64,000 nt of DNA from Thermodesulfobacteriota bacterium (GTDB taxonomy: Bacteria > Desulfobacterota_D > UBA1144 > Nemesobacterales > JAJCZQ01). The stretch is from the NCBI GenBank assembly GCA_965215275.1, contig OZ244044.1, positions 1,664,001-1,728,000 on the forward strand. The letters are read 5' to 3'. The notes beneath the pieces are model-generated. The model saw nothing but the letters and a program-made list of their open reading frames with translations. It searched no databases and had not been told where the DNA came from. Below are positions 31,044 through 61,464 of the stretch, piece by piece (the first letter of the stretch is position 1; the number at the start of each line of letters is the position of its first letter). Position numbers and translations under genes: made by a program.

Positions 31044-31279
31044 TTTCTTTTGCCTGATAGGCAGGGCAGCAGCATGGAACTGAAACTGCCTGCGGTTTGC
31101 TGGTCTTGCTTTCAGATTAGCGTAACGAAAGCAAAGAAGTTATATTTCTGTTGTAACCAACCTGCCGTGATCTGCACTGTATTTTAACAGGCAAACAAAA
31201 TTTAACGGTTTTTTATAATTGTACAAGGGATTTATATACTTTAGTACCCAACAAAGGAGTTAATAGAAAAGTGTGATCG

Positions 31280-31288
31280 TGTTATAAT
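31280..31288 (+). promoter_or_regulatory. Extended -10 promoter for tnpB (near-leaderless)
   Basis: TGTTATAAT lies 9 nt upstream of the ATG at 31298, with no obvious SD between them. Confidence 0.5.
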
Positions 31289-31297
31289 TACAGAGTA

Positions 31298-32689
31298 ATG
31301 GATAGTGAAAAGAGGATAATTAAGCAGACGAGGACGGAACGCAGAGTGACTGGATTGAATCACCCTTCAACTCATAAGGGTTTGGAAAGGACTTTGGACC
31401 AGCTTACCTATCTGTATAACAGCGCTCTGGAAGAAAGGAAAGAAGCGTACAAAAAATACAAGAAGCTGAAGAAGTGGGGTTTGTCAGAAGAAAGGTTACA
31501 GATGTATTTCTACCCACAATGGGAGTTTGGTATTTCTTACAACAAGAAGAACAGAGTTAAATATCTGGATACAGTTTATGAAGCAGTTAACAGGTTAGTA
31601 AGTAATATCAGACCTTGTGATGATCCTGTTAACTGGAGAGAGTTATCAAAAGAAGAGCTAAAGAAGAAGTCAGTAAGTTATGAAGATCAGGCGAAGTCAC
31701 TGACGGAGATAAGGAATGATGTTTTATTGAAAGGATTCAGCAAGGTAGGTGTTCAGGCACAGCAAAGGACGTTAAAGAGAGTGGATAAGGCTTACAGTGA
31801 TTATATTAAAGGATTGAGAGGCAGTCCTAGATATAAGAACAGCAGCAGAAAGGTAAGAAGTTTTGAAACATATACATGGGGAAATGTAAAGAAAGGAGAG
31901 AGAAGGACATATTTAACGGTAAAGGGAGCAGGCAGGATCTCATTCAGGGGAAGAATACCGGAAGGAACAAAATACATAAGGATATTAAGAACAGCTTTAA
32001 GAGTGGAGGTTCAGTTTGTTTACGAGAAGATAGCTGGAGAGGACAGAGGACTGGACAGAGCGATAGGAATGGATCTTGGAGTAAGGAACAGGATTGCTTT
32101 ATCAGATGGGTCGTTTTACAAGGGAACTGAAGTAAGCAGAAAGAAAGACAAAAGAAAGCAGAGAGCAGTTTCAAGAGCTGAAAAAGGTTCCAACGGCAGA
32201 AAGAAGAAGGTAAAGCTGCTTGGGAAGGAACGAGCAAGAACAGCAATAAAGGAACATAACAAAATACACAGGTTAACTACAGAACTGTCAAGAGCGTATA
32301 ATTTTGTTATATCAGAAGATCTGAGATTAAAGGATATGAGCAGATCGGCAAAGGGGAACGTGGGAGATCCGGGTAAGAAAGTAAAGCAGAAATCAGGATT
32401 AAACAGGTCTTTACGGGAACAGCAGTTGGGCAAGGTATTAGATCAGCTTGAATACAAGGTTAAAAGCACTGGTGGCAAGCTGAGCAGGACTCCGGCTCAA
32501 TATACGTCACAGACCTGTTCTGAGTGCGGATACAGAGATAAAAGGAACAGAAAAGGAGAAGTATTTAAGTGTGTGTTTTGCGGTCATAAAGACCATGCAG
32601 ACACGAATGCAGCTATAAACATTTGCAATAGTGAAAACACGCTATGTCGGGTGGGACAGCCAGACTTGAGCTCCCGATGCAAGCTGTAA
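31298..32689 (+). CDS. tnpB: RNA-guided endonuclease TnpB
   Basis: RuvC motifs GMDLG, SEDL and ADTNAAINI; QKSGLNRS; YTSQTCSECG...CVFCG Zn finger. Confidence 0.93.
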   Translation: MDSEKRIIKQTRTERRVTGLNHPSTHKGLERTLDQLTYLYNSALEERKEAYKKYKKLKKWGLSEERLQMYFYPQWEFGISYNKKNRVKYLDTVYEAVNRLVSNIRPCDDPVNWRELSKEELKKKSVSYEDQAKSLTEIRNDVLLKGFSKVGVQAQQRTLKRVDKAYSDYIKGLRGSPRYKNSSRKVRSFETYTWGNVKKGERRTYLTVKGAGRISFRGRIPEGTKYIRILRTALRVEVQFVYEKIAGEDRGLDRAIGMDLGVRNRIALSDGSFYKGTEVSRKKDKRKQRAVSRAEKGSNGRKKKVKLLGKERARTAIKEHNKIHRLTTELSRAYNFVISEDLRLKDMSRSAKGNVGDPGKKVKQKSGLNRSLREQQLGKVLDQLEYKVKSTGGKLSRTPAQYTSQTCSECGYRDKRNRKGEVFKCVFCGHKDHADTNAAINICNSENTLCRVGQPDLSSRCKL

Positions 32690-32779
32690 ATGTTTTATCA
32701 AAAGAGAACGGGGAATTAAGAGGGACTCTGCTTGCAGAACAGTATGTTTAGTACTTGTGTATTAAAGTATATAAGTCCC
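32640..32779 (+). ncRNA. Probable omegaRNA/reRNA scaffold of element 1 (boundaries approximate)
   Basis: Expected position at the 3' end of tnpB. Stems: TCGGG/CCCGA (32647-77), TGCAAGC/GCTTGCA (32678-736) and TTTAGTAC/GTATTAAA (32747-66). Confidence 0.5.
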
Positions 32780-59981: not shown

Positions 59982-60034
59982 AATTTATTAAATCCTTAAA
60001 GCAAAAAATTCAAGAATACTGTACAATTCTATAT

Positions 60035-61337
60035 GGGAACTATATACTTAAGTATCCAGTGGATACTAAAAGTTCTCTTTGACGAGTCATAGACCAGTTC
60101 CTGTCCCCAACCCCTCTGCAGTCTCCCCGTCCAATCACCCCTTTCCCTGAGGCTATAATTTGTTTTATTCCAGTTTCCAACTGGTTAAATGCAGCATTTA
60201 AGTCAGCATTAACTTCATAACCGCAAGATATACACTTAAATCTGGATTGCGATATTCTGTTGTCAGGAGATCTGTGTCCGCATTCAGAACAGGTTTGACT
60301 GGTATATGGAGCTGGAACTTCTTCAGTAGCATTACATTTATAATCCAGCATCCTTTTCATATCAAACCAGCCAGTAGCACGAATGTTCCTGTTCATCTTG
60401 CGAAAGTTCTTCCATTTCTTTCTGGCTGTCATCCCTTGTGTATTAAGTCTCTCAAGTATAGGAACATCATAAAGATCGGAGATCTTTCTTGTAACCTGAT
60501 GTCTCCAGTCCTTCTGTCTGTTTGCCAGCTTCCTGTGAAGTTTCTGCAACCTTTCCTTAGTAATTCTCCACCTGTTACTTCCCTCTTCCTGACGTGCAAG
60601 TTTCTTTTGGTATCTGCGTATCTTTGCTTCTGTAAGTTCATCATCAGATAACTTAAAAACCTGTCCGTCAGACAGCGTAACCTGTCTTGAATTCCTGTCC
60701 ATTGCTACAACTCTTACTTCTTTCTTTTCCTCTTTAGTTTCATCTATCTCATAGTTAAGGTACGCATACCACTTACCGCATTCCTTCTTGATCCTGCCAG
60801 AAAGGAACTTTCCATCAGGATAAGGATTCTTACCTGCCAACCTGAACCATCCAACCTGAACCATCCAACCTTTAAAATACGGACCCAGTTATTGTCTGAC
60901 AGTTTAGCTGACTGATAATTTACCGGAAACGAAGGAGTAGTTTTTAATTTACTCTTGAATTTAGGTTGTCCCGATTTTCCATTCCTGTATCTCTTACAGG
61001 CATTTGTAAGGTCCAGTAAATAATGCTGAAGTATGTAAGCAGATGCTTCTTTCAGAAAGTAGTTCTTTTCTTCTTTCTTAAACTCTCTTAAAAAATTCCC
61101 TAAACTCTCATGACTATAACCATCATTAAAATCGTTATCCCTTAAAATCCCTGTAAAGTGATTCCATACAAACCTGCAACAGCCAGCAGTAGAGGAAAGT
61201 TTATGAAACTTCTCCCTGTTGTTTGATCTCAACCTCTGCCTTACCGTTCTTATTGTCTTACCTTCTTTCATATTTGTAATTTTATCTTATTCCCTTGCTT
61301 TTTTTAAGTAGTTTGGATACTTAAGTATATAGTTCCC
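60035..61337 (-). mobile_element. TIR-bounded, non-autonomous tnpB element 2 (1303 bp) with 8-bp TSD
   Basis: Perfect 24-bp IR GGGAACTATATACTTAAGTATCCA (60035-58 and 61314-37). The direct repeat TTCTATAT flanks it at 60027-34 and 61338-45. Confidence 0.93.
60040..61271 (-). pseudogene. tnpB: TnpB split by a 14-bp tandem duplication (405 aa if repaired)
   Basis: The N-half has CRFVWN and PKFKSK; the C-half has AMDRN, LERL, TSQTCSECG and NADLNAA. CCAACCTGAACCAT is repeated at 60837-50 and 60851-64. Confidence 0.9.
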
Positions 61338-61464
61338 TTCTATATTATATCACTCTGACTTGACAACCAGCGTTGAAATATGACAAGATAGTTTGAAAAA
61401 GTCAGGTTCTGTATTCTTACGGTCTGGCTGTGATAAGTTACGGATAAGGTGCTTGGTATTTACA

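Follow-up and report, generated by a model that had tools for sequence, protein, structure and literature searches.

How does a gene for an RNA-guided nuclease travel when it lies between perfect inverted repeats, inside a target-site duplication, and has no transposase beside it? This question is raised by a tnpB element in the window, by which we mean the whole 64,000-nucleotide stretch of DNA that was analyzed. The element occupies 60035-61337 (1303 bp; G+C 39%, compared with 42.5% for the genome), and tnpB is its only gene, with the stop codon 5 nt from the element end. Its first and last 24 nt are reverse complements at all positions (24/24), and pairing ends at position 25. The repeat at the tnpB 3' end lies at 60035-60058 on the plus strand, and its outermost bases are the predicted 3' strand of a guide-RNA pseudoknot; the repeat at the tnpB 5' end lies at 61314-61337 on the minus strand. 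The 8-bp duplication TTCTATAT stands on both sides, at 60027-60034 beside the tnpB 3' end, where its minus strand is predicted to supply the guide's first 8 nt, and at 61338-61345 beside the tnpB 5' end. A first-pass annotation of this DNA had described the same anatomy, and it held in every part.

The inverted repeats and the duplication are not products of chance, since a profile of the ends gave 190 sites in the source genome (G000; one contig, 99.87% complete) and 1 in a shuffled genome, and since exact flanking duplications among 84 repeat pairs of G000 peaked at 8 bp (18 pairs, with one of 9 bp, two of 4 bp and none of 5-7 or 10-12 bp). Two features of the IS1595 family are present in the window element, namely inverted repeats of about 25 bp beginning with GG (24/24) and an AT-rich 8-bp target duplication, while an IS1595 transposase gene is absent inside it. 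Having inverted repeats and a duplication, it differs from IS200/IS605 and IS607 elements, and the corresponding profiles scored below their cut-offs (NF038281 for IS200/IS605, 163 with a cut-off of 425; NF038280 for IS607, 82 with a cut-off of 350). The window element is a transposase-less element with IS1595-type inverted ends, an 8-bp target duplication and tnpB as its sole cargo.

The first-pass annotation had proposed looking for empty alleles with a single duplication, and runs X6 and X8, both from one other study, contain them. Their contigs of 4.6 kb and 15 kb skip exactly 1311 nt, which is the element plus one copy of the 8-mer (60029 to 61341, with 5 letters of slide). The flanks of these contigs are ~97% identical to the window, and none of the differences listed for them falls between 59999 and 60029. 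In both runs the depth of the element is several times that of the flanks and loose ends occur at the element borders, indicating that this strain carries the element at other sites. In the window, the element lies between two divergent genes, one for an S4 and pseudouridine synthase protein and the other for a radical-SAM protein (named rluB and cofG in the first-pass annotation). The same two genes are adjacent without the element in G002 and G003, the two of four same-family genomes in which the gene was found. Within window positions 61360-61390, a TTGACA box and the bases downstream of it are conserved in G002 and G003; as the box is 15-20 nt from the insertion, the element adjoins the likely radical-SAM promoter without breaking it.

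What, then, moves the element? The TnpB zinc finger has 23 matches in G000, comprising 17 open frames of 400-485 aa, two frameshifted genes and four fragments. Each of the 19 near-full-length tnpB genes in G000 is enclosed by a pair of these repeats, nine of them with an exact 8-bp duplication. The 18 pairs with an exact 8-bp duplication contain tnpB in nine cases, an IS1595 transposase in seven and neither in two; seven IS1595 transposase elements, from a total of 28 IS1595 matches, thereby share both the end family and the exact duplications. The serine resolvase profile PF00239 had no match in the 99.87% complete G000, and Y1 had one weak match, ~49 kb from the nearest tnpB match, in a protein that we take to resemble the REP-associated type. 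Each of the two sister copies of the element in G000 is flanked by an exact 8-bp duplication of its own, and neither a Y1 nor a serine tnpA was found with them, which is what the first-pass annotation had expected of other copies.

That annotation had also read the element as a non-autonomous, IS1595-like DDE vehicle, and a transposase element with closely matching ends is indeed present. Among 20 IS1595 elements of G000 that were compared, the one at G000:C1:1516018-1519071 (L011:1001-4054) has the closest ends, with 1 and 3 mismatches of 24 to the window repeat, together with an exact 8-bp duplication and an open 326-aa transposase (193.8 bits against NF033547, cut-off 75). This would be the best candidate helper element. 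It also carries two passengers, a 381-aa methyltransferase-like protein and a 200-aa unknown protein, and its transposase has a threefold 5-residue repeat at the C-terminal end. The shared ends and duplication length make movement in trans by a resident IS1595 DDE transposase very probable. We saw no element containing both tnpB and a transposase.

Four tnpB families occur in G000, and the window family (A) is only ~30% identical to families B, C and D. Within the class, 25 of the 120 genomes have relatives of family A, and 23 of these belong to one genus; outside the class, relatives were found in 19 of 53 genomes, in the order of Ca. Oxydemutator. A first set of 139 loci (27 without a repeat pair, 9 duplicates) yielded 103 insertions, 46 with exact duplications, distributed as 46 in family A, 50 in B, 4 in C and 3 in D. 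The outside-class set of 64 loci (5 without a pair, 3 duplicates) yielded 56 insertions, 24 of them exact and a few likely to be false pairs, so that 159 repeat-bounded insertions at different sites are available. IS1595 transposases are present in 26/36 and 4/5 of the genomes checked, and within a genome the ends of IS1595 elements and of tnpB shells agree, as at L434 and L382. A metagenome scan of 80 loci gave two in this clade with these ends (L196, L197), most others being 27-36% relatives without them, and the plasmid collection gave no match at E 1e-40.

Several further loci deserve mention. A second tnpB element, of family C, lies on the plus strand of the window at 31227-32779 (1553 bp, 463 aa, same end family); its flanks have no matching duplication (1/8), perhaps through recombination between copies. 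Thirteen identically scoring IS1595 copies in G059 (L322-L334) have duplications swapped between copies, a sign of rearrangement. In different genomes, elements of families A and B occupy the start of one and the same host gene, at identical sites or at sites 1 nt apart (L163/L190 and L123/L295), either because the spot was hit repeatedly or because shells exchanged their cargo. Outside-class genomes also hold a distant TnpB group (L429-L432; ~470-codon frames, 33-35% to P0009), for which no convincing repeat pair was found. Two apparent composites were rejected: an 886-codon frame in G113 is not a transposase fusion, being tnpB read through past a lost 3' end, and tnpB and IS1595 lying 2 kb apart in G102 are separate elements.

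The window copy cannot encode full-length TnpB. Its 5' frame (60744-61271, minus strand; 175 aa, PF12323) is out of frame past about residue 140, and its 3' frame (60040-60864, minus strand; 274 aa, PF01385 and PF07282) contains the RuvC D-E-D residues and the C4 zinc finger; the frame is broken, and the catalytic residues are present. The shift is caused by a 14-nt tandem duplication at 60840-60867 (units 60840-60853 and 60854-60867), which is missing from both sister copies and from the contigs of runs X4 and X5. A 293-nt contig of the independent run X10 covers 60654-60946 with zero differences, the duplication included, and the duplication is thus real and no assembly slip. The sister copies are 97.0% and 95.5% identical to the window copy, and their tnpB genes are open (400 and 405 aa), with the RuvC D-E-D and C4 zinc finger in one frame; the two sister genes differ from each other at 21 codons synonymously and at 15 by replacement. 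They lie at G000:C1:202426-203640 and 714700-715899. The intact sister P0001 scores 219.8 bits against the TnpB profile NF040570 (cut-off 100), and the ISDra2 TnpB chains match TnpB at E 2e-24. Across homologues, D187, E269, D352 and the four cysteines are invariant (30/30). The first-pass annotation was right that the window gene is broken; the repair that it had envisaged for a cleavage assay is unnecessary, as two intact sisters exist.

Next to the gene, the predicted omegaRNA scaffold core lies at 60035-60156 on the minus strand and consists of a hairpin (60137-60153) and a second conserved helix (alignment A3). The hairpin loop of the window copy, at 60143-60147, is complementary to the last 5 nt of the element; throughout family A, a hairpin ~105 nt before the end has a loop complementary to the last 5-6 nt. 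In 48 aligned ends, the three helices were paired in 98.2% of 768 cells, compared with 86.0% in shuffles (0/500 as high), a control that preserves column make-up and not kinship, with the pseudoknot columns mostly invariant; slid partners in the same alignment were paired in 30-51%. Changes on both sides were seen in 8/16 pairs, three in the hairpin, three in the second helix and two of the six in the helix between loop and repeat. This pseudoknot helix is paired in 95.5% of cells, with a mismatch at the fifth pair in 6/48 rows, and the lineages that contribute its compensatory changes are few. The loop-end match recurs in families B, C and D, with C and G exchanged in family C, in loops chosen with a purine filter; the counts to trust are those from the 48 rows, in which no purine filter was used and stems were required. 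Rfam gave no matches to E 1. The single-sequence fold of the window RNA, in a model without pseudoknots, had no energy support (z -0.85), and a promoter scan was uninformative (5 sites, 3.9 in shuffles). Together, the alignment supports, without proving, a fold conserved into the terminal repeat, with a predicted pseudoknot at the 3' end of the element.

In ISDra2, the pseudoknot pairs positions -102 to -106 with -6 to -2, and ~12 TAM-proximal matches are needed (PMC10097598). From this layout and the loop-end pairing, the guide is predicted to start at the duplication, or 1-2 nt into it. The predicted 20-nt guide is ATATAGAATTGTACAGTATT (60015-60034, minus strand), formed by the duplication and the adjoining flank and deduced from the flank bias, the fold and the ISDra2 layout; this guide and the bases upstream of the duplication agree with those named in the first-pass annotation. 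At the filled site, the 5' junction matches the guide over 8 nt only, and the 3' junction has CCC at the place of the TAM. A 12-nt seed of each copy's own guide has no second site except one per sister, and none at 14 nt.

The flanks of the insertions bear on the TAM, predicted at 61346-61349 on the minus strand, where, read in the direction of tnpB, it directly precedes the duplication. The three copies of the window subfamily all have A next to the duplication, preceded by T. The motif was counted in tnpB orientation over 100 insertions whose duplications agree in at least 6/8 positions, drawn from two bacterial groups, omitting 58 of the 159 (no clear duplication or repeat match) and one more shared by both sets; one counted pair (own 772277) is probably mis-paired. 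A purine stands directly 5' of the duplication (-1) in 98/100 tnpB insertions, and C in 0/100, compared with a purine in 44/100 at the mirror position. The values by set are 32/33 for family A, 31/31 for B (all G), 4/4 for C/D and 31/32 for the outside-class set, which was collected once the purine pattern was known. In contrast, the control IS1595 transposase elements, 32 drawn from 96 loci of which many have no clear pair, have a purine in 20/32 on each side and a symmetric AA...TT target. The difference at -1 has a Fisher p of 1e-9, a value overstated because the insertions are separate events but the elements are kin. G occupies -1 in 31/31 insertions of family B and in 15/33 of family A, indicating that the bias follows the nuclease and not the shared ends. 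An initial rule that the first duplication base is A was rejected, since it applied to 31/33 family A insertions of the first set, but outside the class the base was A in 17, C in 12 and T in 4 of 33.

The TAM is predicted to be a short purine-ending motif outside the duplication, on its 5' side, and the one-sided purine at -1 backs the first-pass annotation, which had placed any TAM upstream of the duplication. With one strong position only, the motif is short, and weak for a TAM. RNA-guided, TAM-dependent cleavage by TnpB is a prediction, and this one-sided flank bias is the observation that bears on it.

We hypothesize that a tnpB element with IS1595 ends is moved in trans, and that its nuclease cuts empty sites, into which repair copies the element back. 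This reading, in which the RNA boundaries, cleavage of the empty allele and homing as a filter are taken together, has in our judgment a probability of about two in three (0.68). In our model, the transposase would bind both repeats and insert the element at an AT-rich 8-mer through staggered cuts. The tnpB transcript would then read through the 3' repeat into the flank, the last 5-6 nt of the repeat would close the pseudoknot, and the guide would begin at the duplication or 1-2 nt into it. The TAM would be the short purine-ending motif directly 5' of the duplication. The filled site would be safe: where the guide matches in full, at the 3' junction, CCC stands instead of the TAM, and where the TAM is present, at the 5' junction, the match covers only 8 nt. 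Finally, TAM-adjacent insertions would spread or persist by homing, which would explain why almost only these are seen. IS1595 elements form circles (PMC12561309, PMC5704250) and may leave the donor copy in place, as a review suggests (PMC5704250). If the donor copy is retained, no empty targets would arise by excision, and alleles that were never filled would be the only ones open to homing. Consequently, the main targets may be never-filled alleles, on sister chromosomes or incoming DNA, more than excision sites.

The same flank pattern could arise at integration, if TnpB or its RNA helped to choose the site, as a TAM-reading helper of the IS1595 transposase. The exact-duplication insertions of families A and B follow the purine pattern without exception (22/22 each), and a slow survival filter explains this absence of exceptions less easily than biased integration does. 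The motif is also specific to the family although the ends are common, and plain IS1595 elements persist without any such motif. On the other hand, rare jumps followed by strong homing would yield the same picture. Each insertion takes a new guide from its own flank, and a guide obtained in this way cannot point to the next site. Moreover, the catalytic residues of TnpB are kept; to our knowledge, they are not kept in the known guide-directed transposons. We regard site choice by TnpB as unlikely.

A different explanation would make tnpB a passive passenger and the flank purine a product of host selection: elements would survive mainly at the starts of genes, the purine beside the duplication belonging there to a start codon or ribosome-binding site. 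In genus g10 (for example L016, L019, L024, L025, L036, L121, L125 and L164), an ATG within the last 45 nt of the element continues in frame into a downstream host frame of at least 100 codons in 21/46 insertions of family A and 13/50 of family B, compared with 0 and 2 at the other end, and with 1/36 for IS1595 elements. Many of these downstream frames look like housekeeping genes, presumably argC, queA, argB, leuS, smpB and alaS. By providing a start codon, these g10 elements seem to persist where genes begin. That IS1595 elements carry many passenger genes, as also noted in PMC5704250, fits a passenger role as well. However, the purine bias remains once start-codon sites are removed (21/22 and 21/21); in-frame starts are rare in the outside-class set (5/56), yet a purine is found there in 31/32, and the source genome has none (0/11). 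The bias also differs between tnpB families within the same genomes, and the RNA fold is conserved into the repeat with compensatory changes. Selection at gene starts acting on a mere passenger is about as unlikely as site choice by TnpB.

The tree of 61 proteins speaks to the origin of the cargo. Family A forms one branch and families B, C and D another, with support of 100 each, and both lie among relatives without these ends, several of which have Y1-like genes beside them. Two separate captures of tnpB by IS1595 ends are favored by this topology, although the test did not reject a single origin (p-AU 0.051, from 61 of the 123 rows). That an ordinary IS605- or IS607-type tnpB element landed in an IS1595 MITE, or that the repeats arose by chance, is very improbable: the nearest non-repeat relatives are IS605-type, some with a Y1-like tnpA adjacent, and are the source of the gene, but neither an IS605 end nor a remnant of a host MITE is present, the tnpB stop reaches almost to the element end, G000 has no resolvase or tnpB-linked Y1, 159 repeat-bounded insertions occupy different sites, and the empty allele, which lacks the entire unit plus one duplication, already refutes the boundaries that such an origin requires.

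Returning to homing by a trans-moved element, one genome departs from the common plan. In G019:C4, a family A TnpB of 400 aa with its catalytic residues kept (L020; L362:380-1753) has no IS1595 repeats, and tnpB is followed by a CRISPR-like mini-array of three 36-nt repeats at 66-nt spacing with two 30-nt spacers. Two of these repeats end in TATTCCC, like the element end, and the cas1 of G019 lies on another contig with a different repeat. The mini-array repeat occurs in 1/5 genomes of its genus and in 0 viral contigs. It is a possible step from TnpB to Cas12 within this clade. A much broader reading would combine these observations: IS1595 ends would have captured TnpB at least twice and made the repeat part of the guide RNA, TnpB would bias DDE insertion while keeping its nuclease, some elements would anchor in the first codons of housekeeping genes by giving the start codon, and one branch would have swapped the repeat for a CRISPR mini-array, a new origin of a Cas12 out of an IS1595 element. 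Taken as a whole, this combination is doubtful.

How does this system compare with those already known? The first-pass annotation could not judge how novel the arrangement is. Its general form, a DDE-borne TnpB with inverted ends and movement in trans, has already been published in outline (PMC10691335). Altae-Tran et al. 2023 described six DDE-associated TnpB branches (DDE-1 to DDE-6) with inverted repeats, and solo TnpBs that share the ends and were suggested to move in trans; as here, prokaryotic TnpB lies between DDE inverted terminal repeats, with its 3' end at most 250 bp from the end. The text of that study names IS630, not IS1595, as a partner; IS1595 occurs 0 times in its main text, and its supplement has the name once, in a list of profiles. 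A 2026 review gives ISL2, IS630 and IS1031 as the partners of those branches (PMC13565253). One of the six branches may nevertheless be IS1595. The text of PMC10691335 examined here also has no TAM, guide-boundary or duplication analysis. In the literature searched, no TnpB with IS1595 or ISXO2 as partner was found (judged for IS1595 by title and start of abstract), and nothing related to TnpB at start codons or essential genes.

The IS1595 family and its transporter IS (MTnSag1/tISSag10, tISCpe8 and ISApl4; PMC5704250 and PMC12561309) share with the window element inverted repeats of ~25 bp starting with GG, 8-bp AT-rich direct repeats and passengers. The window element differs in having no transposase and in carrying as passenger an RNA-guided nuclease, the RNA of which is predicted to make use of the repeat itself. 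With IS200/IS605, IS607 and the solo IS1341 group it shares TnpB, an RNA overlapping the 3' end of the gene and a guide from the flank, and with ISDra2 a pseudoknot loop ~105 nt from the end (PMC10097598). Those elements have hairpin ends and scarless excision, whereas the window element has inverted repeats and a target duplication; in addition, the predicted TAM is not the target motif of the transposase, and the one-sided bias lies atop a symmetric target. Fanzors in eukaryotic DDE transposons are likewise repeat-bounded TnpB-family nucleases with a target duplication, but in the account given in PMC13565253 their 5' duplication is part of the TAM and their 3' copy part of the scaffold. In the window system, the duplication varies freely and lies in the predicted guide, and the motif lies outside it.

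According to the same review, prokaryotic TnpB with DDE transposases is rare, and its benefit is unexplained, as excision is not scarless. Our model suggests a testable answer, in which the duplication would be the seed of the guide, the TAM would lie outside it and the CCC of the repeat would protect the filled site. An abundant natural series is available for this purpose, with 159 insertions, an empty allele of the same site and, within a single genome, both intact nucleases and a transposase that matches. It also directs attention to compact nucleases whose TAM is predicted to be very short and to end in a purine. Compared with the known systems, the window element likely works like the homing of an IS605-type TnpB and travels as a non-autonomous derivative of IS1595.
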